Source of the DNA: Escherichia phage ECO4
Sequence record: NC_054911.1
Length of the DNA stretch: 64,000 nucleotides
Strand: one strand, 5' to 3'
The first letter of the stretch is position 1. Each line of letters begins with the position of its first letter. Of this stretch, positions 20,062-63,749 are shown piece by piece. The notes beneath the pieces were generated by a model that saw only the letters and a list, made by a program, of their open reading frames with translations, was not told where the DNA came from and made no database searches. Made by a program: the position numbers and the translations under genes.

Positions 20062-20888
20062 AATAATATCCAATTTTTCCAAGCTTCATCAGTAGAATTA
20101 CAGCGTTTTAGTATAAGATGTCTAGAAACTTTTATGGCATTTGAGCACTTTTTAATTGAATCATATTTAATACCGTCAACTGAAACGGTTTTGCTAATTG
20201 GAGAAATTTTTCCATACATTGGATTTTTTGAACCAACTTGAAGTCCTTTTAAAGCTTTTGAAAGCTTTTGTCTAGATTCCAATGACATGGGAGAATTCTT
20301 TTTACCTTCAATAATTCGCTTGCGATGAAGTTCGCGTTCTTCTTCACTCAAAGAATTGTAATATTTTTTAACACCGTTTGATATAGATAATTTATCTTTC
20401 TCAGACCGCTCTCCAGCTAATTTACTTCTAACATCTTTTCGCTTCATAGCTATGCTTACGGCTTTATTTAAATTTGCTTGATGCTCTGGCGTACGTTTAT
20501 ATTTCTTTAAAGCACGTGAAATAGCTATTTTAGTTTCTTCTGTTCTCTTTTTACCTTTATTTGCTAAACTATTTTTGCGGCGATGTTCAAGTGTCTGTTC
20601 ATAGGCAGTTCCACCTTTTCCACCAGGTTTAATATTATATGTATTTTCTTTTAGACAATACTCTTCGGTTACAAGTTCAGCTTCTTTATCATACATCTGT
20701 TTTTCATTATCAAAAACATGTAAAATTTCTTTATTAAAATTTTTTCTACCATATTTTAATAAAGCGGCACGAATCAATGTTCCTGACCCCATATAACCGT
20801 CATTTATGTTATCGGTGCTATGCGCACCGATATATTCCTTTGAATTAATTATATTTGTTATTTTATAAATTATATAATACCTATGCAT
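20058..20888 (-). CDS. GIY-YIG family homing endonuclease (free-standing)
   Basis: N-terminus YYIIYKITNIINSKEYIGAHS = GIY-(10 aa)-YIG; lysine-rich C-terminal DNA-binding-like region; inserted between nrdD stop and nrdG start with overlaps at both ends. Confidence 0.75.
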   Translation of the reverse strand: MHRYYIIYKITNIINSKEYIGAHSTDNINDGYMGSGTLIRAALLKYGRKNFNKEILHVFDNEKQMYDKEAELVTEEYCLKENTYNIKPGGKGGTAYEQTLEHRRKNSLANKGKKRTEETKIAISRALKKYKRTPEHQANLNKAVSIAMKRKDVRSKLAGERSEKDKLSISNGVKKYYNSLSEEERELHRKRIIEGKKNSPMSLESRQKLSKALKGLQVGSKNPMYGKISPISKTVSVDGIKYDSIKKCSNAIKVSRHLILKRCNSTDEAWKNWILL

Positions 20889-22698
20889 GTTTTACTCGTT
20901 TTACCATTTCTTTCATTTTACCTAAATTCCATGGAACAACGCTAGGAGTTCCAAGATATCCGCATGTTCTTCTTATTGTATTCATCTTTTTAGGATCAGT
21001 TTCTCCACAAATAGAACAAATAAATCCGCTTTCAGTAGGAGTCATTTCATGGGTGCTTCCGCATGTAAAACATTTATCTACTGGCATATTAACACCAAAA
21101 TAATCTAAATGTTGTGCAGCATAATCCCATACGGCCTCAAGACCCTTTAAGTTATTTTTCATATCAGGAAGTTCAACATAAGAAATGTGACCACCTGTCG
21201 CAATGAAATGATATGGTGCTTCTCGAGAAATCTTTTCAAACGGAGTAATATTTTCTTCTACTGAAACATGGAAACTGTTAGTGTACCAGCCTTTATCAGT
21301 AACATCCTTTACACTTCCATATTTTTCTGTATCAAGTTTACAGAAGCGATAACAAAGGTTTTCAGCAGGAGTCGAATATAAACTAAAAGCAAATCCAGTT
21401 CTTTCAGTCCACTGTTTAAGATGAGCATTCATTTTAGTTAAAATTTCTTGCCCGATATCACGTCCAACAAGAATATTCAATTCATGAATACCAATGTATC
21501 CTAGGGACACTGAACTTCTACCGTTTTTAAATAACTCAATTATGTCGTCATCAGGTTTAAGACGAACCCCGAATGCACCTTCTTGGTAAAGAATAGGAGC
21601 AACAGTCGCTTTAACTCCTTTTAAGGAACTAATTCTACACATCAAAGCTTCAAAACACAAATCCATACGTTCATTGAATAATTCAACAAATTTCTGTTCG
21701 TTAAATTGTGTTCCAATATAAGAATCTAATGCAATGCGAGGAAGATTCAGTGTTACAACACCAAGATTATTACGTCCATCAAGAATTTCATTACCAGTCG
21801 AATCTTTCCATACGCTCAAGAAACTACGGCAACCCATTGGAGAAACAGGAATAGATGAACCGGTGATAGCTTTATTATTCTTAACTGAAATAATATCAGG
21901 ATACATCCTTTTGCTTGCACACTCTAGAGCAAGCTGCTTAATATCATAGTTCGGATCGTCTTTATAAAGATTAACGCCTTCTTCAACGAACATAACAAGT
22001 TTAGGAAAAATAGGAGTTATCCCATCACGACCAAGACCTTTAATACGATTTTTCAGAATTGCTTTCTGAATCATTCGTTCAGTCCAGTCAGTTCCCGTAC
22101 CAAATGTAATTGTTACAAAGGGAGTCTGTCCGTTTGAACTAAAGAGAGTATTTACTTCATATTCATAAGCTTGGAATGCATCGTATACGTCTTTTTCTGT
22201 TTTAGATTGGGCATAATTCAGTGCATCGGCGATTTGCCATTTTTCTGCGTCCTCGATATGTTTTGCATAGGTGCGTTTAACATAAGGAGAAAGTACTTTA
22301 TCTACATTAGCAAAAGTCGTTCCGCCATATTGATGGGAAGCAACTTGCGCAGTAATTTGTGCCATAATTGCAGTAGCAACGCCAATTGATTTAGGAGTTT
22401 CAATCTGTGCATTACCAAGCTTAAATCCGTTTTCAAGCATTCCTTTTAAATCTACTAAACAACAATTAGTAAATGGAAGAGCAGGGGAATAATCAATATC
22501 ATGGAAATGAATAATTCCGCTTTCATGCGCTTTCATAATAAAAGACGGGACCATATTTTTGGCAATGTGTTTAGACACAATACCAGCCATAAGGTCCCGT
22601 TGAGTTGGAAAAACACGAGAATCTTTATTAGCATTCTCGTTTAAAAGGTCTTTATTAGTTTTATGAATCAATCCTTCAATTTCTTTTTCAATTGTCAT
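20881..22698 (-). CDS. nrdD: anaerobic ribonucleoside-triphosphate reductase (uninterrupted, no intron)
   Basis: 605 aa continuous ORF; C-terminal zinc-ribbon CFTCGSTHEMTPTESGFICSICG and glycyl radical region. Confidence 0.93.
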   Translation of the reverse strand: MTIEKEIEGLIHKTNKDLLNENANKDSRVFPTQRDLMAGIVSKHIAKNMVPSFIMKAHESGIIHFHDIDYSPALPFTNCCLVDLKGMLENGFKLGNAQIETPKSIGVATAIMAQITAQVASHQYGGTTFANVDKVLSPYVKRTYAKHIEDAEKWQIADALNYAQSKTEKDVYDAFQAYEYEVNTLFSSNGQTPFVTITFGTGTDWTERMIQKAILKNRIKGLGRDGITPIFPKLVMFVEEGVNLYKDDPNYDIKQLALECASKRMYPDIISVKNNKAITGSSIPVSPMGCRSFLSVWKDSTGNEILDGRNNLGVVTLNLPRIALDSYIGTQFNEQKFVELFNERMDLCFEALMCRISSLKGVKATVAPILYQEGAFGVRLKPDDDIIELFKNGRSSVSLGYIGIHELNILVGRDIGQEILTKMNAHLKQWTERTGFAFSLYSTPAENLCYRFCKLDTEKYGSVKDVTDKGWYTNSFHVSVEENITPFEKISREAPYHFIATGGHISYVELPDMKNNLKGLEAVWDYAAQHLDYFGVNMPVDKCFTCGSTHEMTPTESGFICSICGETDPKKMNTIRRTCGYLGTPSVVPWNLGKMKEMVKRVKHA

Positions 22699-40557: not shown

Positions 40558-40735
40558 CTAAACGAATAGGTTCATGAATGCCATATCCCTGAACAGAAAT
40601 TTCTGTCGTAGGATAAATTCCATTAATATCACCCATGTTCCATGCTTCGTTAAATTGCTGTTCGCCTGAATTACTAAACCACTCGGCGAAAGCATTTAGC
40701 ACATCTTCAGAACCTTCAATAATTATCTTTGCCAT
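40514..40735 (-). CDS. hypothetical protein
   Basis: 73 aa ORF. Confidence 0.45.
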   Translation of the reverse strand: MAKIIIEGSEDVLNAFAEWFSNSGEQQFNEAWNMGDINGIYPTTEISVQGYGIHEPIRLVEYDLCTGEEVKYD

Positions 40736-41109
40736 TACAAACTCTCGGTGAAGGTACGAGCGATAACGTCGCGCTGCTGTTCCGGAGTCAGAGAGTTAAA
40801 GCGAACTGCATAACCGGATACACGGATGGTCAGCTGCGGATATTTTTCCGGATGCTTAACTGCATCTTCCAGAGTTTCACGACGCAGAACGTTAACGTTC
40901 AGGTGTTGACCACCTTCAATTTTAACTGTAGGTTGTGTTTCAATTTCAATTTCACGGGCATGCAAACCATAGAAAATTTCTGGGTCTACAAAAGAGTCCT
41001 CTTTAAAGGTTTTAGAAACAATAATTCGCGCTTGAATACCATCTTCAAAATAAATAGTACCTTTATGCGTGCCTTCAAGAATTTGATATGCTTTCATATA
41101 ACCTCTCAA
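40735..41109 (-). CDS. autonomous glycyl-radical cofactor (GrcA/YfiD-like)
   Basis: C-terminus [62 protein letters not shown] carries the glycyl-radical RVSGY motif. Confidence 0.8.
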
Positions 41110-42124: not shown

Positions 42125-42598
42125 TTATTTAAATGATTTGACGTACTGAACAGAACCTTTACTATTCACGAAAGCGATTTTACCATTTTTATTATACATG
42201 GTAGCAGTACGCTGATAGCCATAAGTTTGCTTACCAGATTGATAACCAACTAATGCAAAATTATCTTCACCCATTTTATTCTGTTTAGCGCGAATGCGTT
42301 CATGACCATGTGCCATAAGAACCTTAGCATCACCCGTTGCAATGGATCTACGAGTTTTTTCATCTTCAACTGTATTAACAAAATCATCAAATGAATCAAA
42401 TTTAGCATGAGATTTATTATACAGTTTTCCATCTACTGCATAATTATATCCTTGCACATCCATCTCAACTTCTGTACCATCATCCAATACAGCAGTGATT
42501 TTCTGTCCTTTTTTAAATTTCAAAAGATCAGTAAAAGATTCAGCAATAATTTGAGAATTAATAGCTGCTTCAGTGATAAATTCTTGATATGTTTTCAT
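42125..42598 (-). CDS. internal-protein-like head protein with capsid-targeting N-terminus
   Basis: N-terminus MKTYQEFITEA matches the capsid-targeting sequence of T4 internal proteins. Confidence 0.6.
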   Translation of the reverse strand: MKTYQEFITEAAINSQIIAESFTDLLKFKKGQKITAVLDDGTEVEMDVQGYNYAVDGKLYNKSHAKFDSFDDFVNTVEDEKTRRSIATGDAKVLMAHGHERIRAKQNKMGEDNFALVGYQSGKQTYGYQRTATMYNKNGKIAFVNSKGSVQYVKSFK

Positions 42599-42607
42599 AT
42601 GTTTCCT

Positions 42608-43024
42608 TTAAATGTAAATATTTTTGCCGTAATACTTGTACCAGTGTGGCTTCATTAAAATTTTTTCATCGAGTCGTTGTTGACTCAATTTAATAGCTGA
42701 TTTGCATGGATTATAATCATTTTTCCATTCTGCTGGAATATCGCTGATGTCAGGAACTTCAGTATCTTTTATACTAAACCCGCGTTTTAAGCATTCCGTT
42801 ATAATGTCTGATTGACGCTTTCGCAAAAATTCTAACTTATCGTAAAAGAACGTAACATGACCAGAACCTAAAATAAACTCGGAAGATATTTTAAAATCTT
42901 TAACCCGCTTACCATTTGCCACATGTTTACGAACTATACCAAAAACACGTGGCAATTCACGGTATTCTGCGATTAAATGCTGATCAGCAAGTTCAGATAC
43001 TAAAGTCAAATTAATACGAGTCAT
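42608..43024 (-). CDS. denV: endonuclease V (pyrimidine-dimer DNA glycosylase)
   Basis: 138 aa [29 protein letters not shown]...; downstream of early promoter. Confidence 0.93.
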
Positions 43025-43049
43025 TTTATCCCTCCAAGTAACTGTGAAT

Positions 43050-43079
43050 ATACTATCACAGTTCTAGGAGAAAGTAAAC
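43050..43079 (-). promoter_or_regulatory. early promoter, GTTTAC-18nt-TAGTAT
   Basis: Upstream of denV. Confidence 0.7.
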
Positions 43080-43083
43080 AACT

Positions 43084-43614
<531 letters not shown>

Positions 43615-48834: not shown

Positions 48835-48910
48835 TGGTCGAGGCAGTAGGGATCGAACCTACGACCCAGGACTTAGAAGGTCCTTGCTCTTCCTTCTGAG
48901 CTATGCCTCG
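48835..48910 (-). tRNA. tRNA-Arg (anticodon UCU), CCA encoded
   Basis: Manual cloverleaf: acceptor CGAGGCA/TGCCTCG, anticodon loop CTTCTAA, T-loop TTCGATC. Confidence 0.8.
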
Positions 48911-48914
48911 TATT

Positions 48915-48989
48915 TGGCGGACGTGATAGGATTCGAACCTATAACCAATCACTTAACAGGCGATCGCTCTGCCATTGAGCTACACATCC
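48915..48989 (-). tRNA. tRNA-Asn (anticodon GUU), CCA encoded
   Basis: Manual cloverleaf: acceptor GGATGTG/CACGTCC, D-stem GCTC/GAGC, anticodon loop CTGTTAA, T-loop TTCGAAT. Confidence 0.75.
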
Positions 48990-48993
48990 AAAT

Positions 48994-49080
48994 TGGTGGG
49001 GAGTGATGGAGTCGAACCACCCGAGTCGCAATGACAATGGATTTACAGTCCACACCGCTACCTCTACGGGATAACTCCCC
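48994..49080 (-). tRNA. tRNA-Tyr (anticodon GUA), class II with long variable arm, CCA encoded
   Basis: Manual fold: acceptor GGGGAGT/ACTCCCC, anticodon loop CTGTAAA, long variable arm, T-loop TTCGACT. Confidence 0.7.
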
Positions 49081-49089
49081 AAATTAATT

Positions 49090-49164
49090 TGGTGGCCCTG
49101 GGTGGAATTGAACCACCATCTGGCGATTATGAGTCGCTTGCTTGAACCTTCCAGCTACAGGGCC
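49090..49164 (-). tRNA. tRNA with CAU anticodon (Ile2 or Met), CCA encoded
   Basis: Acceptor GGCCCTG/CAGGGCC, anticodon loop CTCATAA, T-loop TTCAATT; position of tRNA-Ile in T4. Confidence 0.75.
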
Positions 49165-49165
49165 T

Positions 49166-49241
49166 TGGTGCTGATTGACGGAATCGAACCGCCGACCTTC
49201 TCATTACAAGTGAGTTGCTCTACCTACTGAGCTAAATCAGC
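49166..49241 (-). tRNA. tRNA-Thr (anticodon UGU), CCA encoded
   Basis: Acceptor GCTGATT/AATCAGC, anticodon loop CTTGTAA, T-loop TTCGATT. Confidence 0.8.
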
Positions 49242-49246
49242 AAAAC

Positions 49247-49336
49247 TGGCGGAGGCGATAGGATTTGAACCTATGAGTCGCCGGAGCGACTGCCGGTTTT
49301 CAAGACCGGTGCATTAAACCACTCTGCCACGCCTCC
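49247..49336 (-). tRNA. tRNA-Ser (anticodon UGA), class II
   Basis: Acceptor GGAGGCG/CGCCTCC, anticodon stem CCGGT/ACCGG with loop CTTGAAA, long variable arm. Confidence 0.8.
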
Positions 49337-49338
49337 AG

Positions 49339-49412
49339 TCTCCGCGGCAGGATTTGAACCTACGACATTCTGCTCCCAAAGCAGACGCTCTACCAAACTG
49401 AGCTACACGGAG
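49339..49412 (-). tRNA. tRNA-Pro (anticodon UGG), CCA not encoded
   Basis: Acceptor CTCCGTG/CGCGGAG (C1-G72), anticodon loop TTTGGGA, T-loop TTCAAAT. Confidence 0.8.
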
Positions 49413-49422
49413 TAAATTAAAT

Positions 49423-49496
<74 letters not shown>

Positions 49497-49501
49497 AAAT
49501 T

Positions 49502-49588
49502 TGGTGCGAGAAGTGGGACTCGAACCCACAAGGAAATCATTCCGCAGCATTTTAAGTGCTGTGCCTTTACCAATTTGACCATTCTCGC
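49502..49588 (-). tRNA. tRNA-Leu (anticodon UAA), class II, CCA encoded
   Basis: Acceptor GCGAGAA/TTCTCGC, anticodon stem CAGCA/TGCTG loop CTTAAAA, long variable arm. Confidence 0.8.
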
Positions 49589-49589
49589 G

Positions 49590-49662
49590 CTGGGAATAAA
49601 GGACTCGAACCTTTGCATCCTGGAATCAAAATCCAGTGCCTTACCAACTTGGCTAATTCCCA
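49590..49662 (-). tRNA. tRNA-Gln (anticodon UUG), CCA not encoded
   Basis: Acceptor TGGGAAT/ATTCCCA, anticodon stem CTGGA/TCCAG loop TTTTGAT, T-loop TTCGAGT. Confidence 0.8.
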
Positions 49663-49759: not shown

Positions 49760-50053
49760 TTACCATTTATGATAATACATATTTACGATGCATTCAAGAC
49801 CCAAAGGATTCTTGAAAATATCATATTCAAGAGGACCTTTTTCTGTTTCAATAAAGAAATCAAAATTTACTGTATTAAATTTACGGTCTTCCTTCACTAA
49901 TTTAACTTGTGAAGATGAACGGTCAATGTAAACCTTTTCAACTTCAAAATATGTTAAAATGCCATAATCATCAATCAAGGCTTTAGCCGCGTCTTGATCA
50001 TATTTATATCCATTTTCAATGGATGATACTTTCGCATAAAGAATCATTATCAA
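49760..50053 (-). CDS. hypothetical protein
   Basis: 97 aa ORF between tRNA array and ipI. Confidence 0.5.
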   Translation of the reverse strand: MIMILYAKVSSIENGYKYDQDAAKALIDDYGILTYFEVEKVYIDRSSSQVKLVKEDRKFNTVNFDFFIETEKGPLEYDIFKNPLGLECIVNMYYHKW

Positions 50054-50472
50054 CCTTCATCAACAATAGTGTGCGTATTGGCATTTACAATTTGCCACCA
50101 ATCAAAGCGATTAGAACCATAATCTAGTTTGTTTTCATTTTCTTTGATAATGTCACGGAGTTCATCTTCGGTAGCGGCTTTCGCTATTAAATCAGCATAT
50201 CCACCACGAGGATAATAATTATCACCTGCAAAAAGTAAAAAGTTTGGTTTAATGTTATTGAACTCTTCAAGAGTAATAACTTTTCCTAGTGGTAGTTGAA
50301 CAATCTCTACATATTTATATCCTAATTTTTGAGCAGCATCTACTGCTTCAAGCAAAGTATCATGAGCCCATCCAATTTGACAACCTGGCTTTTCCGATGG
50401 ATTAGCCTGATAATCCGCATACACTTTGTACATTCTATTCACCTTTAGAAATTTTATCCATAACGATAGCAA
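50050..50472 (-). CDS. hypothetical protein
   Basis: 140 aa ORF; start approximate (possible MYKVYADY start). Confidence 0.5.
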   Translation of the reverse strand: MLSLWIKFLKVNRMYKVYADYQANPSEKPGCQIGWAHDTLLEAVDAAQKLGYKYVEIVQLPLGKVITLEEFNNIKPNFLLFAGDNYYPRGGYADLIAKAATEDELRDIIKENENKLDYGSNRFDWWQIVNANTHTIVDEG

Positions 50473-50620
50473 TTAAACCAATTAAAAATGCTACTACAAG
50501 TGAAAACACATTTTCTGCTGTAGTCAATAATCCGCATATAAATCCAACAAACATTGAAAAACTAAAAGCGGAAGCAGAAATTGCAATAGCAACATTTCGA
50601 ATTAATTCACAACGTTTCAT
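50435..50620 (-). CDS. small membrane protein
   Basis: 61 aa, two hydrophobic helices, RBS GGAG, downstream of early promoter. Confidence 0.5.
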   Translation of the reverse strand: MKRCELIRNVAIAISASAFSFSMFVGFICGLLTTAENVFSLVVAFLIGLIAIVMDKISKGE

Positions 50621-50648
50621 TTTATTCTCCTCAGTAGTTGATAGGGTA

Positions 50649-50678
50649 ATAGTATCACAACTAAAACCCTATGTAAAC
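50649..50678 (-). promoter_or_regulatory. early promoter, GTTTAC-18nt-TACTAT
   Basis: Upstream of ORF 50435-50620. Confidence 0.7.
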
Positions 50679-50696
50679 AACTTTGTGAAAAATTTA

Positions 50697-50981
50697 TTAC
50701 AAAAGATTTTTAGCAATAATTTTAAGCTGAGCTACTGAAATATGCTTGGCTTTAAACAAAGCAGTTTCTTCAGCAGGTGAGATAACGATTGTAGCACCAT
50801 CTTTCTTAGCGGACCATCCATCACCCAGGTAAACAGTACCTTTGACTTCTTCGCCATCAACCAGGCTAATCATCGGTTTACCTTCACGTCCTTTGTTTGC
50901 TTTAATAACTTCAGAAGTAAGGGTCGCTTCAGTCAAAGTAGAAGCGTTAGTCGTTGAAGTGAATTCTTGATAAGTTTTCAT
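50697..50981 (-). CDS. ipI: internal protein I-like (capsid-targeted, DNA-co-injected protein)
   Basis: N-terminus MKTYQEF capsid-targeting sequence; position immediately before 57B as in T4; early promoter upstream. Confidence 0.7.
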   Translation of the reverse strand: MKTYQEFTSTTNASTLTEATLTSEVIKANKGREGKPMISLVDGEEVKGTVYLGDGWSAKKDGATIVISPAEETALFKAKHISVAQLKIIAKNLL

Positions 50982-51016
50982 TTTATTTTCCTAAATTAAT
51001 AAATGTGTTGATGGAG

Positions 51017-51046
51017 ATAATATCACTTCTCCATCATCGTGTAAAC
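51017..51046 (-). promoter_or_regulatory. early promoter, GTTTAC-18nt-TATTAT
   Basis: Upstream of ipI. Confidence 0.7.
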
Positions 51047-51063
51047 AACTTTGTGAAATTATT

Positions 51064-51742
<679 letters not shown>

Positions 51743-51743
<1 letters not shown>

Positions 51744-52468
51744 TATAGTACCTTTAGTGTATTTTTAATTTTAGAAAAAAGTTCTTCAAGAGAACCATCG
51801 TTTGTAATTACTAAATCACCATCACGAATTGGCAATCCAGCTTCTGTAATATGTGTATCATTGGATTTTTGACCAGGACGAACTACATGAATTACTGTAG
51901 CACCCATCGCCCTAGCCGCATCCATTTCATGATCTTGACGGGTATCAGGAACGATATAATAATCATAACCTGAGTTAAATTTATCAAGATAATCTAAAGC
52001 AAATAATTTTACCCAGTACATGCGGTCGAAGTTATTAACAATCAAATCCGTACCTAGGGCTTGCATCAGACGACGGACTGACCATTGATCTTCAATATTA
52101 TTTATAACGTCAATAATCTTGTTAAATGCTACGGAATTAACTGATTCTTGTCCTTCGTCATCAAAAACAAACACACCCTTAATTGGGCTTTTACCATTAA
52201 GATAGCAAAATGCTTGTTCCATAATCGTAATTACTTCTAATTTAGTCAGATTTAAATTAGTTTCACGATCATAGTCAATTCCTTCAAACTCTTTACGAGT
52301 TAAACAAGGATAGTCAGTGTTTGCTGCAAATACACCCCATGCATAAGCCAATGCATCCTTAATAGGACCAGCAAGTTGGTATTTAACTGCAGAATAATTG
52401 CTCATGATAAAATCAGCAGTAGTATCTTTTCCACTACGCTTTACACCGCTTAAAAAGATTAGTTTCAT
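51743..52468 (-). CDS. 1: deoxynucleoside monophosphate kinase
   Basis: 241 aa from MKLIFLSGVKRSGKDT (P-loop); RBS GAGGAGAAA; track start extended. Confidence 0.93.
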
Positions 52469-52517
52469 GTGTTTCTCCTCAAATTTAATTAAGATTATAA
52501 CACACAAAACTGAAGCA

Positions 52518-53048
52518 TTAAACTTCCGCTATAATTTTTCCATCTTTTTCTACTTGAAAATAGGTGTAAGGAATCGTTGCAGTACATACTAAAGCCGGGT
52601 CTGAATCTTCTGTGTAGCTAAATTCTACTTCAGATAGGTCAGAAACCCAAGGCTTATAAAAATTTATTGACATCACGATTTCAGTTTTGCTATTATCTAA
52701 GATGTAAAGCGTAATGTACTCAGGACCTGTTTTTTGGGCAGTATTTTCACCTGTAAGATAGTTGCTAGTTCCTAACATCCATTCATACATTCCTATCCAC
52801 GACTTAAGTTCTTCATCAACTATAAATCTCACAATGAGTGGATCATACTCAAATGTAACACCTGGACGTTGTGCTCGGCCCAGTCCAAACGGCCCAGTCA
52901 CGGTATCAGTAACAGGTATCCTAATTCCCGGAATAGGAACTGACTGAGCATTTAAAGTAAAAGCAGATGTAGTATTACTATGCGGTATTGATACTACAAA
53001 GTTAGTTGTATTTGCTTGGTTAAAAATTTGTTGTAGTGCTTGCGACAT
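52518..53048 (-). CDS. 3: tail completion/sheath stabiliser protein
   Basis: 176 aa from MSQALQQIFNQ; RBS GAGGAA. Confidence 0.85.
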   Translation of the reverse strand: MSQALQQIFNQANTTNFVVSIPHSNTTSAFTLNAQSVPIPGIRIPVTDTVTGPFGLGRAQRPGVTFEYDPLIVRFIVDEELKSWIGMYEWMLGTSNYLTGENTAQKTGPEYITLYILDNSKTEIVMSINFYKPWVSDLSEVEFSYTEDSDPALVCTATIPYTYFQVEKDGKIIAEV

Positions 53049-53154
53049 ATATTCCTCATAATGCTTCATAAATGTTGGTGGTATAATGGGTCTAAGTCCC
53101 TTCCATTCAATTCCAATTAGAACAAACAACAGAAAAGAATGGAAGATAATAGAA

Positions 53155-53979
53155 TTAGATATTTGACCAGACTTTGTTTGCAGAGAAACGTTTTCCTTTT
53201 GAAACGAACTGCTGAAGTGGCATCAACACAACGTTCGCCCAGTCTTTCGGGGCGATTTCAACGAGGCTACCCATAATATTACCGGGTATATATGCCTTAA
53301 TCATTTGATCTGCACCCCTAAATCCTTTCACTTGACTCCAATCAATTTTTAATTTCGTTTTATTAGTAATAGTAGGTGTATTTGAATATTGCTTTAAAAG
53401 CTCTTCTAGAAATTGCTGACGAGCTTTAGGTGGAATATAGTGCAAGTTCAATCCGTACATTAAATTATGCTTACCTAAACCAAGGTAAATTATCAAAGGA
53501 AATTTATCCCAGTAAGGAAGAGTTTCCTTGTGTTTAGCATCATAAGCAAAAGCATATATTCGTCCCGGCTGCGGGCGAACAACTTTATGTCCTTTTACTT
53601 GCTTAATAGTTTCAGCAAACCATTTTCTGGTTTTATTATTAATTGCTGCACCTTCATTACGAATTTTATCGCGCAATGTTTGTCTGAATGAATTTATCAT
53701 AAGCAGTTGTCTTTCTTGCTTATTGAGTTTATTCATTGGTTTTGATTCAAGCTTTTGAATCTTTTCAGCTGTTTTAATTCCTGAAGCATATTTTGACATT
53801 GCCGAAGTAAACGTAGAGTATTTGATTCCTCTTTCTTCAGCAAATTGCTTTCCTGTCATTCCTTTTGCTTTGGCCTTTTTGTATTCAAGACCTATCTGAA
53901 TCCATTTCTTTTCGTTTAATGATTGCTTAACCTTTGGAACTTGGGGAGTACTTTCATTAATTATTTGAAAAATAGCCAT
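53155..53979 (-). CDS. 2: DNA end-protector protein
   Basis: 274 aa [19 protein letters not shown]...; length and position as T4 gp2. Confidence 0.88.
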
Positions 53980-54431
53980 TATGCCCCCTTAAAGCCAAGA
54001 GCTCGTAATCCATCTTCTGTTAGAATTCTAAATTTTATTCCACGCTTTTCAGCTAAAGCTTGCGCTGCTTTCCATTTGTCAGTATTAACGGAATATGTAT
54101 AAATTTCATTCATAAATCTTTTCTTCGCTGCAGTTGTTAGATGTGCTGGTTTAACTGGTGGTTGTGTTTCTTTTTTAGGTTTTATTTCAATAAAAAATTC
54201 TTGCCCAGAAGAATCTTTCATCCAAATATCCATGAAGTATCTACGTTTTTTCCCTTCTGCATTACAAAAATAAGGAATTACTGCTGTTTCACTACCCCAT
54301 GCAATAATTTCTGGATTTTTATCTAACCATTCAAAAAAGAATTTTTCCCAATTTGATCTATACGTAATTTTTTTAGGGTCACCTCTATATTTTGATATAT
54401 TTTTAGGAACCCATTTTCCAGAATATGCCAT
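53979..54431 (-). CDS. 4: head completion protein
   Basis: 150 aa [32 protein letters not shown]; late promoter upstream. Confidence 0.9.
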
Positions 54432-54442
54432 TGGATTCTCCT

Positions 54443-54450
54443 TATAAATA
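54443..54450 (+). promoter_or_regulatory. late promoter TATAAATA for gene 53
   Basis: Plus-strand TATAAATA 29 nt upstream of gene 53 ATG. Confidence 0.7.
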
Positions 54451-54457
54451 GATAATA

Positions 54458-54465
54458 TATTTATA
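54458..54465 (-). promoter_or_regulatory. late promoter TATAAATA for gene 4 (divergent with gene 53 promoter)
   Basis: Minus-strand TATAAATA 27 nt upstream of gene 4 ATG. Confidence 0.7.
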
Positions 54466-54478
54466 AACAGGAGGGCCC

Positions 54479-55069
54479 ATGCTCTTTACATTTTTTGATC
54501 CGATTGAATATGCGGCCAAAACGGTGAATAAAAACGCGCCGACTATTCCTATGACAGATATTTTTAGAAACTATAAAGACTATTTCAAACGCGCTCTTGC
54601 GGGATATCGCTTACGCACTTACTATATCAAAGGTTCACCACGCCCGGAAGAATTAGCAAATGCTATATATGGAAATCCACAGCTGTATTGGGTTTTATTG
54701 ATGTGTAATGATAATTATGATCCATATTATGGATGGATTACTTCGCAAGAAGCTGCTTATCAAGCATCTATACAAAAATACAAAAACGTAGGTGGAGACC
54801 AAATAGTATATCATGTGAATGAGAACGGTGAAAAATTTTACAATTTAATATCATACGATGATAATCCATATGTTTGGTATGATAAAGGCGATAAAGCTAG
54901 AAAATATCCTCAATATGAAGGAGCGCTTGCTGCGGTCGATACGTATGAAGCGGCTGTTCTTGAAAATGAAAAACTTCGTCAAATAAAAATAATAGCAAAA
55001 TCAGACATCAATTCATTTATGAACGACCTTATACGTATAATGGAGAAATCTTATGGAAATGATAAGTAA
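54479..55069 (+). CDS. 53: baseplate wedge protein
   Basis: 196 aa; late promoter TATAAATA upstream. Confidence 0.9.
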   Translation: MLFTFFDPIEYAAKTVNKNAPTIPMTDIFRNYKDYFKRALAGYRLRTYYIKGSPRPEELANAIYGNPQLYWVLLMCNDNYDPYYGWITSQEAAYQASIQKYKNVGGDQIVYHVNENGEKFYNLISYDDNPYVWYDKGDKARKYPQYEGALAAVDTYEAAVLENEKLRQIKIIAKSDINSFMNDLIRIMEKSYGNDK

Positions 55070-56780
55070 TAACCTTAATTGGTTTGTTGGTGTTGTTGAA
55101 GATAGAATGGACCCATTAAAATTAGGTCGTGTTCGTGTTCGTGTGGTTGGTCTGCATCCACCTCAAAGAGCACAAGGCGATGTAATGGGTATTCCAACTG
55201 AAAAATTACCATGGATGTCAGTTATTCAACCTATAACTTCTGCAGCAATGTCTGGAATTGGAGGTTCTGTTACTGGACCGGTAGAAGGAACTAGAGTTTA
55301 TGGTCATTTTTTAGACAAATGGAAAACTAACGGAATTGTCCTTGGCACGTATGGTGGAATAGTTCGCGAAAAACCGAATAGACTTGAAGGATTTTCTGAC
55401 CCAACTGGGCAATATCCTAGACGTTTAGGAAATGATACTAATGTATTAAACCAAGGCGGAGAAGTAGGATATGATTCGTCTTCTAACATTATCCAAGATA
55501 GTAACTTAGACACTGCAATAAATCCCGATGATAGACCACTATCAGAGATTCCAACCGATGATAATCCAAATATGTCAATGGCTGACATGCTTCGCCGTGA
55601 TGAAGGATTAAGACTAAAAGTTTATTGGGATACTGAAGGATATCCGACAATTGGTATTGGTCATCTTATCATGAAGCAGCCAGTTCGTGATATGGCTCAA
55701 ATTAATAAAGTTTTATCAAAACAAGTTGGTCGTGAAATTACTGGAAACCCAGGTTCTATTACGATGGAAGAGGCGACGACTTTATTTGAACGTGATTTGG
55801 CTGATATGCAACGGGACATTAAATCACATTCTAAAGTAGGACCAGTCTGGCAAGCTGTCAACCGTTCTCGTCAAATGGCGTTAGAAAATATGGCATTTCA
55901 AATGGGTGTTGGCGGTGTAGCTAAATTTAACACAATGTTAACTGCTATGTTAGCCGGAGATTGGGAAAAAGCATATAAAGCCGGTCGTGATTCATTGTGG
56001 TATCAACAAACAAAAGGCCGTGCATCCCGTGTTACCATGATTATTCTTACGGGGAATTTGGAATCATATGGTGTTGAAGTGAAAACCCCAGCTAGGTCTC
56101 TATCAGCAATGGCTGCTACTGTAGCTAAATCTTCTGACCCGGCTGACCCTCCTATTCCAAATGACTCGAGAATTTTATTCAAAGAACCAGTTTCTTCATA
56201 TAAAGGTGAATATCCTTATGTGCATACAATGGAAACTGAAAGCGGACATATTCAGGAATTTGATGATACTCCTGGACAAGAACGATACAGATTAGTTCAT
56301 CCGACTGGAACTTATGAAGAAGTATCACCGTCAGGAAGAAGAACAAGAAAAACTGTCGATAATTTGTATGATATAACCAACGCTGATGGTAATTTTTTGG
56401 TAGCCGGTGATAAAAAGACTAACGTCGGTGGATCAGAAATTTATTACAACATGGATAATCGTCTTCACCAGATAGATGGAAGCAATACAATATTTGTACG
56501 TGGCGACGAAACGAAAACTGTTGAAGGAAATGGAACTATCCTAGTTAAAGGTAATGTTACTATTGTAGTTGAAGGTAATGCTGACATTACAGTTAAAGGA
56601 GATGCTACCACTTTAGTTGAAGGAAATCAAACTAACACAGTAAATGGAAATCTTTCTTGGAAAGTTGCTGGGACAGTTGATTGGGACGTTGGTGGTGATT
56701 GGACAGAAAAAATGGCATCTATGAGTTCTATTTCATCTGGTCAATACACAATTGATGGATCGAGGATTGACATTGGCTAA
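55053..56780 (+). CDS. 5: baseplate hub/cell-puncturing protein with lysozyme domain
   Basis: 575 aa; OB-fold N-term, lysozyme domain MLRRDEGLRLKVYWDTEGYPTIGIGHLI, C-terminal beta-helix VxGxxxxx repeats. Confidence 0.95.
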   Translation: MEMISNNLNWFVGVVEDRMDPLKLGRVRVRVVGLHPPQRAQGDVMGIPTEKLPWMSVIQPITSAAMSGIGGSVTGPVEGTRVYGHFLDKWKTNGIVLGTYGGIVREKPNRLEGFSDPTGQYPRRLGNDTNVLNQGGEVGYDSSSNIIQDSNLDTAINPDDRPLSEIPTDDNPNMSMADMLRRDEGLRLKVYWDTEGYPTIGIGHLIMKQPVRDMAQINKVLSKQVGREITGNPGSITMEEATTLFERDLADMQRDIKSHSKVGPVWQAVNRSRQMALENMAFQMGVGGVAKFNTMLTAMLAGDWEKAYKAGRDSLWYQQTKGRASRVTMIILTGNLESYGVEVKTPARSLSAMAATVAKSSDPADPPIPNDSRILFKEPVSSYKGEYPYVHTMETESGHIQEFDDTPGQERYRLVHPTGTYEEVSPSGRRTRKTVDNLYDITNADGNFLVAGDKKTNVGGSEIYYNMDNRLHQIDGSNTIFVRGDETKTVEGNGTILVKGNVTIVVEGNADITVKGDATTLVEGNQTNTVNGNLSWKVAGTVDWDVGGDWTEKMASMSSISSGQYTIDGSRIDIG

Positions 56781-57309
56781 TATACTTCCAATGAGCGCTG
56801 ATTTAGGAGAATCCATGGAAGGTTCTTCTATCGACGTCACCTTTACCGCTCAATTAGAAACAGGTGAAACGTTAGTATCTATAAATATAACTAGTTACGA
56901 AGAAACTCCTGGGGTTTTAGTAGAAGAAAATCGCTTATACGGAACATATGAATCTGTGTTTGGATTTGGAAATGACGCGTTGAAATATCGTTTAGGCGAT
57001 GAATTTAAAACTGCTGCTTCATGGGAAGAACTTCCTACTGATTCTGATACTCAGTTGTATTTATGGAAAGCTCCTCAAAACCTCCAGAAGACATTCACTT
57101 ACGAAGTAACATTAATATATGACTACCAAGAACAAAGTGAATCTGGAGGTTCTGGCAGTAATTCTAGGTCATCTTCTGATACTACTGAACCGACAGATCC
57201 TCCTGCTCCAGTAAGAAAAACTCTCGTTAAAAATTATACTAAAACTATAGTTGGAAATTGGAGTCGTTGGGCTAATAAATTAAGAAGCTATGTGTATGAG
57301 AGGTCATAG
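56752..57309 (+). CDS. 5.1: hypothetical protein 5.1
   Basis: 185 aa ORF between 5 and 5.4; start approximate. Confidence 0.6.
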   Translation: MMDRGLTLANILPMSADLGESMEGSSIDVTFTAQLETGETLVSINITSYEETPGVLVEENRLYGTYESVFGFGNDALKYRLGDEFKTAASWEELPTDSDTQLYLWKAPQNLQKTFTYEVTLIYDYQEQSESGGSGSNSRSSSDTTEPTDPPAPVRKTLVKNYTKTIVGNWSRWANKLRSYVYERS

Positions 57310-57603
57310 ATGTCAGGATTAAGTTATGATAAGTGTGTTACTGCCGGCCATGAAGCATGGCCTCCAACAGTTGTGAATGCTACACAAAGTAAAGTATTCA
57401 CTGGAGGAATTGCTGTTCTCGTAGCAGGTGATCCAATTACAGAACATACAGAAATTAAAAAGCCATATGAAACACATGGCGGAGTGACACAACCTAGAAC
57501 TTCTAAGGTATATGTCACTGGAAAGAAAGCGGTTCAAATGGCTGATCAAATATCATGCGGTGATACTGTGGCTCAGGCATCATCTAAAGTATTCATTAAA
57601 TAG
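57310..57603 (+). CDS. 5.4: PAAR-like spike-tip protein
   Basis: 97 aa ORF directly upstream of gene 6. Confidence 0.75.
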
Positions 57604-57611
57604 GATTTAAA

Positions 57612-59594
57612 ATGGCAAATACCCCTGTAAATTATCAATTAACAAGAACAGCAAATGCTATTCCCGAGATATTCGTCGGGGGTACGTTTGCTGAAATAAA
57701 ACAAAACCTCATTGAATGGCTTAATGGCCAAAATGAATTTTTGGATTATGATTTTGAAGGCTCAAGATTAAACGTTCTGTGTGACCTTTTAGCTTATAAT
57801 ACATTGTACATTCAACAGTTTGGTAATGCTGCTGTGTATGAAAGCTTTATGCGTACTGCTAACTTACGAAGTTCAGTTGTTCAAGCTGCACAAGATAACG
57901 GATATTTACCTACTTCAAAATCCGCTGCGCAGACCGAAATTATGTTAACATGCACCGACGCATTGAATAGGAATTACATTACTATTCCTCGCGGAACTCG
58001 CTTTTTAGCATATGCAAAAGATACTTCTGTTAATCCATATAACTTCGTTTCTACCGAAGACGTTATTGCTATTCGTGATAAAAATAACCAATATTTTCCG
58101 CGTTTAAAATTGGCCCAGGGACGTATAGTAAGAACTGAAATCATTTATGATAAATTAACACCTATTATCATTTATGATAAAAATATTGATAGAAACCAGG
58201 TTAAATTATACGTTGATGGAGCAGAATGGATTAACTGGACAAGAAAGTCAATGGTTCATGCTGGTTCTACATCAACAATTTACTACATGCGTGAAACTAT
58301 TGATGGAAATACTGAATTCTATTTTGGTGAAGGTGAAATTTCTGTTAATGCTTCTGAAGGAGCTTTGACCGCTAATTATATCGGAGGTCTTAAACCTACT
58401 CAGAACTCTACGATTGTTATTGAGTACATCAGTACTAATGGTGCTGACGCGAACGGAGCAGTCGGATTTTCATACGCAGATACATTAACAAATATAACTG
58501 TCATCAATATTAATGAAAATCCAAACGATGACCCAGATTTTGTTGGGGCAGATGGCGGCGGTGATCCAGAAGATATTGAGCGTATTCGCGAATTGGGTAC
58601 TATTAAACGCGAAACCCAGCAACGCTGCGTAACTGCAACCGACTATGATACATTCGTCTCAGAAAGATTCGGTTCTATTATTCAAGCGGTTCAGACTTTC
58701 ACTGATTCTACTAAACCTGGTTATGCATTTATTGCTGCTAAACCTAAATCAGGACTATATTTAACTACTGTACAACGTGAAGATATTAAAAATTATCTCA
58801 AAGATTATAATTTAGCTCCTATTACACCATCAATTATTTCTCCTAATTATCTTTTTGTTAAGACTAATTTAAAAGTCACATATGCTTTAAATAAGCTGCA
58901 AGAATCAGAACAGTGGCTAGAAGGTCAAATAATTGATAAAATTGATCGTTATTATACCGAAGACGTAGAAATTTTTAATTCATCTTTCGCTAAATCTAAG
59001 ATGTTGACATATGTAGATGATGCAGATCATTCTATTATTGGCTCATCGGCGACAATTCAGATGGTACGTGAAGTACAAAACTTCTATAAAACGCCTGAAG
59101 CGGGTATTAAATACAATAATCAAATAAAAGATCGTTCTATGGAATCTAATACGTTTTCATTTAATTCTGGACGAAAGGTTGTAAATCCTGATACTGGTTT
59201 AGAAGAAGATGTATTATATGACGTTCGTATAGTATCAACAGACCGAGATTCTAAAGGAATTGGTAAAGTTATTATTGGTCCATTTGCTTCTGGCGATGTT
59301 ACAGAAAATGAAAACATTCAGCCGTATACAGGCAACGATTTTAATAAATTAGCAAATTCTGATGGACGCGACAAATACTATGCTATCGGTGAAATAAATT
59401 ATCCAGCTGACATGATTTATTGGAATATCGCTAAAATTAATTTAACATCCGATAAATTTGAGGTTCAGACTATTGAGCTATATTCTGATCCAATAGACGA
59501 TGTTATCTTTACTCGCGATGGTTCACTGATTGTATTTGAAAATGATTTACGTCCACAATACTTAACTATCGATTTGGAGCCTATATCACAATGA
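57612..59594 (+). CDS. 6: baseplate wedge protein
   Basis: 660 aa; length and order as T4 gp6. Confidence 0.93.
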   Translation: MANTPVNYQLTRTANAIPEIFVGGTFAEIKQNLIEWLNGQNEFLDYDFEGSRLNVLCDLLAYNTLYIQQFGNAAVYESFMRTANLRSSVVQAAQDNGYLPTSKSAAQTEIMLTCTDALNRNYITIPRGTRFLAYAKDTSVNPYNFVSTEDVIAIRDKNNQYFPRLKLAQGRIVRTEIIYDKLTPIIIYDKNIDRNQVKLYVDGAEWINWTRKSMVHAGSTSTIYYMRETIDGNTEFYFGEGEISVNASEGALTANYIGGLKPTQNSTIVIEYISTNGADANGAVGFSYADTLTNITVININENPNDDPDFVGADGGGDPEDIERIRELGTIKRETQQRCVTATDYDTFVSERFGSIIQAVQTFTDSTKPGYAFIAAKPKSGLYLTTVQREDIKNYLKDYNLAPITPSIISPNYLFVKTNLKVTYALNKLQESEQWLEGQIIDKIDRYYTEDVEIFNSSFAKSKMLTYVDDADHSIIGSSATIQMVREVQNFYKTPEAGIKYNNQIKDRSMESNTFSFNSGRKVVNPDTGLEEDVLYDVRIVSTDRDSKGIGKVIIGPFASGDVTENENIQPYTGNDFNKLANSDGRDKYYAIGEINYPADMIYWNIAKINLTSDKFEVQTIELYSDPIDDVIFTRDGSLIVFENDLRPQYLTIDLEPISQ

Positions 59595-62500
59595 CAGTAA
59601 AAGCACCTTCAGTCACTAGTCTCAGAATTTCCAAGTTATCCGCAAATCAGGTGCAAGTACGCTGGGATGACGTTGGTGCTAATTTCTACTATTTTGTAGA
59701 AATCGCTGAGACAAAAACAAACTCGGGAGAAAATCTCCCGAGTAATCAATATCGTTGGATTAATTTAGGATATACAGCAAATAATAGTTTCTTTTTTGAT
59801 GATGCTGATCCACTGACATCATATGTTATTAGAGTAGCTACAGCTGCGCAAGATTTTGAGCAGTCTGATTGGATTTATACCGAAGAGTTTGAAACTTTTG
59901 CTACGAATGCTTACACATTTCAAAATATGATTGAAATGCAATTAGCTAATAAATTCATTCAGGAAAAGTTCACTCTTAATAATTCTAATTATGTCAATTT
60001 CAATAATGACACAATAATGGCTGCGTTGATGAATGAATCATTTCAGTTCAGCCCATCGTATGCTGATGTTTCATCAATAAGTAATTTTATTATTGGTGAA
60101 AATGAGTATCATGAAATACAAGGTTCTATTCAACAAGTATGTAAGGATATTAACCGAGTTTATTTGATGGAATCAGAAGGGATTCTATATCTTTTTGAGC
60201 GTTATCAACCTGTAGTTAAAGTATCTAATGATAAAGGACAAACCTGGAAAGCTGTGAAGCTCTTCAATGACCGTGTAGGATATCCTTTATCTAAGACAGT
60301 ATATTACCAATCTGCGAACACAACATACGTTCTAGGATACGACAAGATTTTCTACGGCCGTAAATCAACTGATGTTAGATGGTCAGCTGATGATGTCAGA
60401 TTTAGTTCACATGATATAACATTTGCTAAACTTGGCGACCAATTACATCTAGGATTTGATGTAGAAATTTTTGCCACTTACGCGACTTTACCAGCGAATG
60501 TATACCGCATTGCAGAAGCTATTACTTGCACCGATGATTACATTTACGTTGTCGCCAGAGACAAAGTTAGATACATAAAAACGAGTAATGCACCTATAGA
60601 TTCTGATCCATTATCTCCAACATATTCGGAAAGACTTTTTGAACCTGATACCATGACTATAACCGGAAATCCTAAAGCAGTATGCTATAAAATGGATTCT
60701 ATCGGTGATAAAGTTTTTGCTCTTATTATTGGTGAAGTTGAAACATTAAATGCTAATCCTAGAACATCAAAAATAATTGATTCCGCTGATAAAGGAATAT
60801 ATGTTTTAAATCATGGCACGAAAACATGGAAAAGAGTTTTTGGCAACACTGAAGAAGAAAGAAGACGTATTCAACCTGGATATGCGAATATGTCAACTGA
60901 TGGTAAATTAGTTTCTCTATCTTCGAGTAATTTTAAATTTTTAAGTGATAATATTGTTAATGACCCTGAAACTGTGGTGAAGTATCAGTTAATCGGTGCT
61001 GTTAAATATGAATTTCCTCGTGAATGGCTAGCTGATAAGCATTATCATATGATGGCATTTATAGCAGATGAAAAATCTGATTGGGAAACTTTTACACCTC
61101 AGCCAATGAAATACTACGCAGAGCCGTTCTTTAACTGGTCTAAAAAATCTAACACACGCTGTTGGATAAACAACTCTGATAGAGCTGTAGTAGTTTATGC
61201 TGATTTAAAATACACTAAAGTTATAGAAAATATTCCGGAAACATCACCAGATAGATTAGTTCATGAATACTGGGATGATGGTGATTGTACGATAGTAATG
61301 CCAAATGTTAAATTCACTGGATTTAAAAAATATGCGTCTGGGATGCTTTTCTATAAATCCTCCGGTGAAATAATTTCTTACTATGATTTTAACTATCGAG
61401 TGAGAGACACGGTTGAAATAATTTGGAAGCCAACTGGAATATTTTTAAAAGCATTTTTACAAAACCAAGAGCATGAGACTCCTTGGTCACCAGAAGAAGA
61501 GCATGGATTAGCTGATCCCGATTTAAGACCATTGATTGGCACAATGATGCCTGATTCTTATTTGCTACAGGATTCGAATTTTGAGGCATTTTGCGAAGCA
61601 TATATTCAGTATCTTTCTGATGGATATGGAACTCAGTATAATAATTTACGAAATTTAATTCGTAACCAATATCCGCGAGAAGAGCACGCGTGGGAATATT
61701 TGTGGTCAGAGATATATAAAAGAAACATTTATTTAAATGCTGATAAACGTGATGCTGTTGCAAGATTTTTTGAATCACGTAGCTATGATTTTTATTCTAC
61801 TAAAGGAATTGAAGCATCATACAAATTTCTTTTTAAAGTTCTTTATAATGAAGAAGTTGAAATTGAAATTGAATCTGGGGCTGGTACTGAATATGATATA
61901 ATCGTTCAATCTGATTCTTTGACTGAAGACTTAGTAGGACAAACGATTTATACAGCTACAGGAAGATGTAATGTTACTTATATAGAAAGAAGCTATTCTA
62001 ATGGTAAATTGCAATGGACCGTAACTATTCATAATCTTTTGGGAAGATTAATTGCCGGTCAAGAAGTTAAAGCAGAAAGACTCCCTAGTTTTGAAGGCGA
62101 AATTATTCGTGGGGTTAAAGGAAAGGATTTGCTTCAAAATAATATAGACTATATTAATAGAAGTCGATCATATTATGTAATGAAAATTAAATCCAACTTA
62201 CCTTCTTCCCGCTGGAAATCTGACGTTATTCGTTTTGTTCATCCAGTAGGATTTGGATTTATAGCAATTACTCTTTTAACTATGTTTATTAATGTTGGTT
62301 TAACTCTTAAACATACAGAGACCATAATTAATAAATACAAAAACTATAAATGGGATTCTGGATTGCCTACTGAATATGCTGATAGAGTAGCTAAATTAAC
62401 TCCGACTGGTGAAATTGAGCATGATTCGGTAACAGGCGAAGCAATTTATGAGCCTGGCCCAATGGCTGGTGTAGAATATCCTCTTCCTGATGACTATAAT

Positions 62501-63686: not shown

Positions 63687-63691
63687 ATTAA

Positions 63692-63716
63692 GGGAGCCCA
63701 TGGGCTCCCTTTTTCT
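63692..63716 (+). terminator. intrinsic terminator after gene 8
   Basis: GGGAGCCCAUGGGCUCCC palindrome followed by UUUUUCUUU. Confidence 0.7.
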
Positions 63717-63717
63717 T

Positions 63718-63725
63718 TATAAATA
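63718..63725 (+). promoter_or_regulatory. late promoter TATAAATA for gene 9
   Basis: TATAAATA 25 nt upstream of gene 9 ATG, just after gene 8 terminator. Confidence 0.7.
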
Positions 63726-63749
63726 CTATAAACTCATAAGGAAACCGCT

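Follow-up and report, generated by a model that had tools for sequence, protein, structure and literature searches.

Only two spare-part proteins have been validated so far, the YfiD (GrcA) protein from Escherichia coli and bacteriophage T4's Y06I (PMC8683613). Both take up a glycyl radical from the activating enzyme of pyruvate formate-lyase (PFL) and both restore the activity of PFL after oxygen has cleaved it at Gly734 (Wagner 2001, as cited in PMC8683613). In YfiD, residues 61-127 form a structured domain that duplicates PFL residues 693-759, and residues 1-60, which are disordered in solution, are needed for binding of the cleaved PFL and for efficient installation of the radical (PMC8683613). 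We report an analysis of vs.6, the gene for the Y06I ortholog, in a stretch of 64,000 nucleotides (nt) from Escherichia phage ECO4 (sequence record NC_054911.1), which we refer to throughout as the window. This gene is a mosaic, in which the glycyl-radical domain is encoded by DNA identical to grcA of E. coli and the remainder by DNA of phage type. The gene and its biochemical role are already known, for T4 since 2001; the worthwhile new point is an evolutionary one, namely a signature of gene conversion from the host to a lytic phage, rather than the gene or its function.

Intragenic recombination between host and phage was reportedly described by Zeidner in 2005 for the psbA and psbD genes of cyanophages. 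Phage T4 degrades the DNA of its host and replaces cytosine by a modified base, and despite this a stretch of 169 nt identical to a host gene is carried by the T4-like phage studied here.

The vs.6 gene lies on the minus strand, in an open reading frame (ORF) at 40735-41109 of the window. The TTG at 41109 is merely the first possible start found by the ORF-finder and the true start is the ATG at 41097, which is preceded by a putative ribosome-binding site, GAGAGG, overlapping the TGA stop codon of the upstream gene vs.7. The resulting coding sequence (CDS) of 363 nt has the same length as the annotated CDS in T4 (vs.6, NP_049730) and in IME339, the closest record to the window. Its product matches the Pfam family Gly_radical (PF01228, E=2.2e-18) and the best NCBIfam family is GrcA (TIGR04365), with a score of 154.6 bits that falls below the curated equivalog cut-off of 170 owing to the diverged N-terminal half. 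The best solved structure is the nuclear magnetic resonance structure of E. coli GrcA/YfiD (6OWR, E=4.6e-42), followed by PFL, with which the protein aligns over 63 residues (697-759 of 1H16). All of the C-terminal 60 residues are identical to residues 68-127 of E. coli GrcA (60/60) and the 61st differs, whilst the first 60 share only 19 residues with GrcA (19/60) and carry a deletion of seven. Hidden Markov model alignments to GrcA (TIGR04365, 6OWR) start at residue 20-22; four residues of the N-terminal half, Q5, K29, R48 and P56, are kept across the phage and bacterial proteins.

The protein resembles the GrcA family in standing alone, with 120 residues and its own ribosome-binding site, start and stop, and in having a C-terminal glycyl-radical domain that is homologous to PFL 693-759 and contains the RVSGY motif. 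It shares 118 of 120 residues with T4 Y06I (NP_049730) and, with its gene placed between vs.7 and vs.5, falls in the vs.6/Y06I orthologous group; the order regB-vs.5-vs.6-vs.7-denV is that of T4 and IME339, and the gene is matched at megablast level in 792 phage records. On these comparisons we take the vs.6 product to be a diverged homolog and functional analog of GrcA within the vs.6/Y06I group and not an equivalog of bacterial GrcA, although the RefSeq name for the T4 ortholog is nonetheless GrcA. An initial annotation, made from the letters of the sequence, had proposed a GrcA/YfiD-like gene with an RVSGY motif at this place in a phage that also carries nrdD and nrdG; each of these elements is present, with the start codon corrected, and the likeness to E. 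coli GrcA and T4 Y06I that it invoked is as given above.

Identity as a full-length PFL is ruled out for this gene: only the last ~63 residues of PFL are present and there is neither the ten-stranded barrel of the ~760-residue enzyme nor its catalytic Cys418/Cys419 pair. In many phage records of GenBank the present protein of 120 residues goes under 'pyruvate formate-lyase', '2-ketobutyrate formate-lyase', 'glycerol dehydratase radical' or 'acetyltransferase-like', and these labels are over-annotations arising from the shared 60-residue domain.

At the level of DNA the gene changes character twice (Table 1). A tract of 169 nt, which encodes residues 61-115 and thus the glycyl-radical domain, matches E. 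coli grcA without a single mismatch, the 55 third positions included, such that none of its 55 codons shows a synonymous difference (0/55); it begins seven residues into the structured domain of GrcA. In a blastn search of the gene against 5,426 complete E. coli genomes only the 3' half was matched, always with grcA as the best match, and no DNA match was found for the 5' half, which bears hardly any relation to grcA in sequence and is 72-76% identical to the Jiaodavirus and Karamvirus orthologs (72% to Jiaodavirus). In the tail, the five codons FTESL specify the same amino acids as in GrcA, yet every one of the five differs synonymously. An exact DNA match of 169 nt means that the resemblance to grcA cannot be due to chance. 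A second host gene, pflB, is ruled out as the donor of the block, its paralogous 3' end differing at 33 of 165 nt.

The base composition breaks at the same place. The fraction of G and C at third codon positions (GC3) rises from 0.18 in the 5' half to 0.44 in the block, compared to 0.42-0.44 in E. coli grcA, and the overall GC content of the block, 0.51, is the same as that of E. coli grcA and stands against 0.35 for the window. GC3 separates a host-like block from a phage-type half within one gene. When the whole window was compared to E. coli by megablast, no match was found in 1-25000 or 50001-64000; in 25001-50000 the vs.6 patch was the best place in every chromosome, and the other displayed matches were only those of phage tRNA genes to ~100-kb plasmids. 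No other protein-coding DNA of the 64-kb window matched E. coli at megablast level. As in the intragenic recombinants of cyanophage psbA and psbD, the block nests with host alleles, the 5' half nests with phages and composition breaks between the two.

Table 1. Coordinates of vs.6, its parts and other features of the window
Feature	Position	Strand	Basis
vs.6 (Y06I) CDS, 120 residues plus stop	40735..41097	-	ORF list; ATG and ribosome-binding site read from sequence; Pfam, NCBIfam and PDB matches
Putative ribosome-binding site GAGAGG, 4 nt upstream of the vs.6 ATG	41102..41107	-	Read from sequence; function inferred
5' half of vs.6, phage-type	40920..41097	-	19/60 residues identical to GrcA; matches only phages in DNA
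Tract of 169 nt derived from the host; gene nt 179-347, identical to nt 200-368 of E. coli grcA	40751..40919	-	Codon-by-codon comparison; longest exact match
Phage-type 3' tail, last five codons F-T-E-S-L plus stop	40735..40750	-	Codon comparison
RVSGY glycyl-radical motif, residues 92-96	40810..40824	-	Translation; alignment to 6OWR and PFL 1H16
Radical-bearing glycine G95 (GGT)	40813-40815	-	Equivalent to GrcA G102 and PFL G734; radical role from literature (PMC8683613)
nrdD	20881-22698	-	Pfam NRDD 2.4e-171
nrdG	19591-20082	-	Fer4_12/Radical_SAM
276-residue ORF between nrdD and nrdG	20058-20888	-	NUMOD3 motif and I-TevI-type DNA-binding domain
Ten clustered tRNA genes (Arg, Asn, Tyr, Met, Thr, Ser, Pro, Gly, Leu, Gln)	48835-49662	-	

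The donor of the block is E. coli grcA. The block shows no difference in 165 nt from the majority E. coli allele (0/165), whilst any other sampled bacterium differs at 11 nt or more, and in a nearest-host bootstrap the nearest host was E. coli-type in at least 99.6% of replicates for all Tequatro-, Mosig- and Carettavirus blocks. The transfer ran from host to phage, rather than the reverse: the block has host composition, and in each of its halves E. coli grcA has diverged from Citrobacter and Salmonella as expected under normal vertical descent. The initial annotation had read the near-identity to a host protein as recent acquisition from an enterobacterial host. This holds for the 3' ~169 nt, for which the donor can be narrowed to E. 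coli, and fails for the gene as a whole: no more than this part is recent host DNA, the 5' half is an old and diverged phage-lineage GrcA homolog, and the gene is a mosaic and not a recent whole-gene capture. The phage, in effect, keeps its own recognition half and uses the radical domain of the host.

The route from identity to recency also requires care. The C-terminal domain has 42 invariant columns across the phage and bacterial proteins and is under extreme purifying selection, and in three IMG/VR contigs of 144-179 kb (L110-L112, gene at 601-960) 59 of the last 60 residues are those of E. coli GrcA, with a nucleotide identity of only ~83%. As these contigs encode nearly the same residues in rather different DNA, protein identity alone, from which the earlier reading had argued, is no proof of recency; its conclusion stands by virtue of the DNA identity, and we regard nucleotide identity at synonymous sites as the decisive sign of recent exchange. 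The same three contigs, which combine near-zero nonsynonymous divergence with substantial synonymous divergence, are themselves a caution against deducing recent transfer from the identity of a phage protein to that of its host.

A second instance is found in phages of Klebsiella. The Jiaodavirus phages PhiKR8 and Boboto possess the orthologous phage-type 5' half, followed from the same junction, at the EGG codons, by a block in which GC3 rises to 0.55-0.60 from 0.23-0.25 upstream. This block encodes the residues LLDAVEH of Klebsiella, Raoultella and Salmonella, not the LEDAVKH of E. coli, and is closest to Klebsiella-type grcA alleles from metagenomes (L179-L183; 85-91% bootstrap), for which the nearest named representative is a Klebsiella sp. 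metagenome-assembled genome at 91-92%. Between PhiKR8 and L183 there are 7 differences in 165 nt, only one of which lies in nt 181-281. Host-matched replacement has thus taken place independently at least twice, each time at the same position of an orthologous phage gene.

Amongst the phages compared, the E. coli block is confined to those Tevenvirinae that infect E. coli (Tequatro-, Mosig- and Carettavirus), in which it lies at 0-6 differences in 165 nt from the majority allele, with the next bacterial genus at least 11 differences away, and these genera differ from each other by 10-13% in their 5' halves. The EGG junction at the 5' end is common to all of them and the 3' end of host identity varies, lying at nt 347 in the window, 350 in L100, 353 in most and 356 in T4. 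The comparison of the window with the Carettavirus phiE142 is particularly instructive, since the block is 100% identical whereas the 5' half is 85-93% and vs.5 68-75% identical; synonymous codon differences number 12 of 54 in the 5' half versus 0 of 55 in the block (p=1e-4). In INPHARED, the block is at least 99% identical to the E. coli allele in 391 records and at least 95% identical in 641, as against only 2 records in which the 5' half is at least 99% identical to that of the window and ~150 at 80-90%. The variation in the block consists of private singletons, with the exact E. coli sequence at the centre. The Mosigvirus blocks have four derived changes in common and tolerate 4-6 synonymous changes.

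GrcA-like genes occur in many other enterobacterial phages, including several T4-like genera, T5-likes and jumbo contigs of 345-357 kb, and in most of them the block lies 19-39 differences in 165 nt from any sampled bacterial allele. The 'old' blocks of two T5-like Demerecviridae (L097, L098), three contigs of 345-357 kb (L123, L125, L126) and one of 235 kb (L146) differ from every sampled host allele at no fewer than 30 of the 165-180 nt compared. In a further IMG/VR contig, of 19 kb (L127, match at 601-894), the GrcA-like block is 91% identical to grcA of Yersinia artesiana; this contig could be bacterial or prophage DNA in a viral collection, or another host-matched phage copy. Two deposited phage genomes, vB_Eco_Some (L260, 321-790) and KMB39 (L261, 412-832), have out-of-frame tandem duplications of ~79 nt and ~55 nt, respectively, inside the block, which leave vs.6 split or truncated; these could be real rearrangements at a recombination-prone site or artefacts of assembly from host reads.

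How many events these blocks record is a matter of weighing. The block may have passed from host to phage in a single recent transfer and then have reached Tequatro-, Mosig- and Carettavirus as co-infecting phages recombined with one another, with no ongoing conversion and with Jiaodavirus as one separate event. Recombination among T4-like phages is known to be free, the 5' junction is the same in all E. coli Tevenvirinae, the sharing of host polymorphisms is not significant and the common changes of the Mosigvirus blocks look like vertical descent after acquisition. Exchange between phages, however, would not be expected to end where homology to the host ends, and the stretch homologous to the host is just where Tequatrovirus and Carettavirus share an island of identity, flanked on both sides by phage DNA diverged by 7-32%. 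An island with these limits is predicted by conversion from the host and not by phage-phage exchange; moreover, the 3' end of host identity differs even among close relatives and the variants form a star around the exact E. coli allele, so that we find a single transfer rather unlikely. The idea that grcA was captured long ago and has since been held in place by very strong purifying selection, with no recent exchange of DNA, draws on the invariant columns of the domain and on the 59 residues retained by L110-L112, and is undone by the same contigs: selection on the protein leaves synonymous sites free, these contigs have diverged by ~17% in DNA for nearly the same protein and Mosigvirus tolerates synonymous changes, while the window has none in 55 codons and a host-type GC3. 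We judge such a history extremely improbable. A transfer in the opposite direction, from phage to E. coli, fits neither the GC3 of the block, 0.44 compared to 0.18 in the phage half, nor the normal divergence of E. coli grcA from Citrobacter and Salmonella, and contamination of assemblies by host reads, though it might be suspected from the odd duplications in two phage assemblies, would have to account for a block with the same junction in ~640 independent phage records, the T4 reference among them; reversal or artefact is accordingly the account to which we give least credence.

Conversion from the host at least twice, and probably recurrently, is the best reading of these comparisons, and what is seen from one phage genus to the next suggests gene conversion that is repeated, specific to the host and limited to a single protein domain. 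Within the E. coli phages recurrence is probable rather than proven, and several observations, in addition to the sub-threshold family score already mentioned, weigh against our interpretation. The shared 5' junction would also fit one ancestral event. Single-nucleotide polymorphisms of the phages coincide with host polymorphisms at 4 of 15 variable sites in the E. coli set (p~0.03-0.08), which is too weak to be used, and at 7 of 12 in the Jiaodavirus pair, where p=0.32 at third codon positions and the overlap was likewise left unused. The Klebsiella-type donor alleles come from metagenome contigs, and Jiaodavirus differs from them at 7-11 of 165 nt. No conversion has taken place in those phages of E. 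coli whose blocks are more diverged (RB49, L110-L114 types, T5-likes); the lineages at ~83-86% identity, RB49 and L110-L114, appear to have escaped conversion, as a homology-dependent process would give. Finally, no description of the vs.6-grcA mosaic was found in the searchable literature, a search outside of which Wagner 2001 and Miller 2003 lie, so priority is uncertain; the review of T4 genomes by Petrov (2010) mentions neither vs.6 nor glycyl-radical genes.

Taken as a whole, the findings are very probably best explained by an ortholog of T4 vs.6/Y06I with a mosaic origin by host gene conversion, which serves as a spare part for PFL. The function of the window protein is assigned by analogy with the T4 ortholog, from which it differs at 2 of 120 residues. 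Repair of either PFL or NrdD had been suggested in the initial annotation, and it is the PFL half of that proposal which agrees with the biochemistry of T4 Y06I (Wagner 2001, via PMC8683613). A role in which the protein repairs NrdD, the anaerobic ribonucleotide reductase of the phage itself, might be entertained given that nrdD and nrdG lie in the same window, that NrdD is also a glycyl-radical enzyme cleaved by oxygen and that spare parts for other such enzymes have been speculated on (PMC8683613), but vs.6 has no similarity to the NrdD of the window detectable by BLASTP (E=3.8) and its domain, identical to that of GrcA and alignable to PFL 697-759, duplicates the strand, loop and helix of PFL, which leaves this role hardly credible. 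The protein could instead be a decoy or inhibitor, competing with GrcA or titrating PflA to redirect host metabolism, a suggestion that takes its appeal from the divergence of precisely that N-terminal half which in YfiD governs recognition and activation of cleaved PFL. That landmark residues of this half are kept between phage and bacterial proteins, and that T4 Y06I reportedly restores oxygen-cleaved PFL after activation by the PFL activating enzyme (Wagner 2001, in the account of PMC8683613), makes a decoy very unlikely.

The identity of the gene, its mosaic structure, its donor species and the presence of at least two independent host-matched blocks are the observations on which a mechanism has to build. 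The vs.6 product, a separate protein of 14 kDa, would act as a glycyl-radical 'spare part' made from the phage genome once transcription of the host has been shut off. Its residues 61-120 would insert into host PFL cleaved by oxygen at Gly734, and the diverged N-terminal half, corresponding to the disordered half of GrcA that binds cleaved PFL, may have the same role in the phage protein. Host PflA would then install a new glycyl radical on vs.6, restoring the production of acetyl-CoA and formate, and the presumed physiological benefit would be a fermentative supply of acetyl-CoA and ATP kept running in the micro-aerobic conditions of the gut, complementing the anaerobic reduction of nucleotides by the phage NrdD/NrdG.

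As to its origin, we propose that the radical domain of an old phage grcA homolog was overwritten by homologous recombination with the chromosomal grcA of E. coli during lytic infection. In this phage, where 0 of 169 nt differ, the event would be very recent; in the Klebsiella phages it would have been independent, and in different E. coli Tevenvirinae it was probably repeated. The T4 recombination machinery would use fragments of the degraded host chromosome as donors wherever homology suffices. Since enough of it is offered by the conserved radical domain only, a conversion tract would begin at the EGG codons and end among the last few codons of the gene. At the 3' end, the translation-initiation region of vs.5, which overlaps the final codons, may favour the phage version. 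The stop codon of vs.6 overlaps the start of vs.5 (TAATG) and a GAGAG, a candidate Shine-Dalgarno sequence for vs.5, is found 6 nt upstream of the vs.5 ATG (40728-40752, minus strand); this GAGAG of the phage-type tail sits where E. coli grcA has GAAAG, as does T4 itself. The overlap and the GAGAG are a possible reason for the last codons to resist conversion. The more general proposition, that the radical domain of vs.6 is in concerted evolution with host grcA, such that lytic T-even phages repeatedly copy ~170 nt from their current host and the block tracks the host whilst the N-terminal half evolves separately, is one on which we hold the balance to be even.

Other features of the window are those of a T4-like (Tequatrovirus) segment, with tk, vs, regB, denV, e and nudE recognisable around vs.6. 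A scan for promoters and terminators around vs.6 gave 15 as compared to 12.2 expected in shuffled sequence, that is, no expression signal. At 42125-42598 (minus strand) and 42608-43578 the gene order departs from that of T4, in that denV and e are adjacent, with no ipII or ipIII between them, and an ORF of 157 residues, called 'internal virion protein' in the annotation of IME339, lies between vs.8 and denV. The ORF between nrdD and nrdG resembles a free-standing homing endonuclease (mob/seg-like). Within the tRNA cluster, a stretch at ~48929-49083 is 82-90% identical to tRNA-Tyr/Thr genes on ~100-kb E. coli plasmids, and the plasmids with these related genes may be phage-plasmids.

The vs.6 gene carries a signature of gene conversion from host to lytic phage that is uncommonly clean and open to test by experiment. 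If concerted evolution with grcA is true, vs.6 would be a natural and easily assayed reporter of the flow of DNA from hosts to virulent phages, and a molecular record of recent host use. On the practical side, such a block can mislead annotation, contamination filters, host-prediction tools and assemblers.

Of the known systems, T4 vs.6/Y06I (NP_049730) is the closest, having the same length, a gene likewise placed between vs.7 and vs.5 within the interval from regB to denV, a host-identical block and the same 5' junction; it differs by two substitutions (T54P and R73H in T4), by host-identical DNA that extends 9 nt further 3' and by one private non-synonymous change. E. coli GrcA/YfiD (P68066; 6OWR) shares with vs.6 the C-terminal 60 residues, the 169 nt, the RVSGY motif, the small stand-alone size and the two-part architecture, but the phage N-terminal half is 7 residues shorter and mostly different in sequence, and vs.6 is AT-rich, expressed by the phage and translationally coupled to neighbouring phage genes. 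The C-terminal domain of PflB (1H16, 697-759) has the homologous strand, radical loop and helix and is the part that the spare part replaces, within an enzyme that, unlike vs.6, has 760 residues. The cyanophage genes psbA and psbD, whose gene clusters track host range, are likewise metabolic genes of T4-like phages, in which G+C is patchy and segments have been traded with the copy of the host (Sullivan 2006, PMC1484495). Relative to these, vs.6 is distinguished by one block of 100% identity with sharp borders, found in a classical coliphage, a donor that can be identified to the species, a junction at a protein-domain boundary, a replicate in phages of Klebsiella and an experimentally tractable pair of organisms, T4 and E. 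coli.

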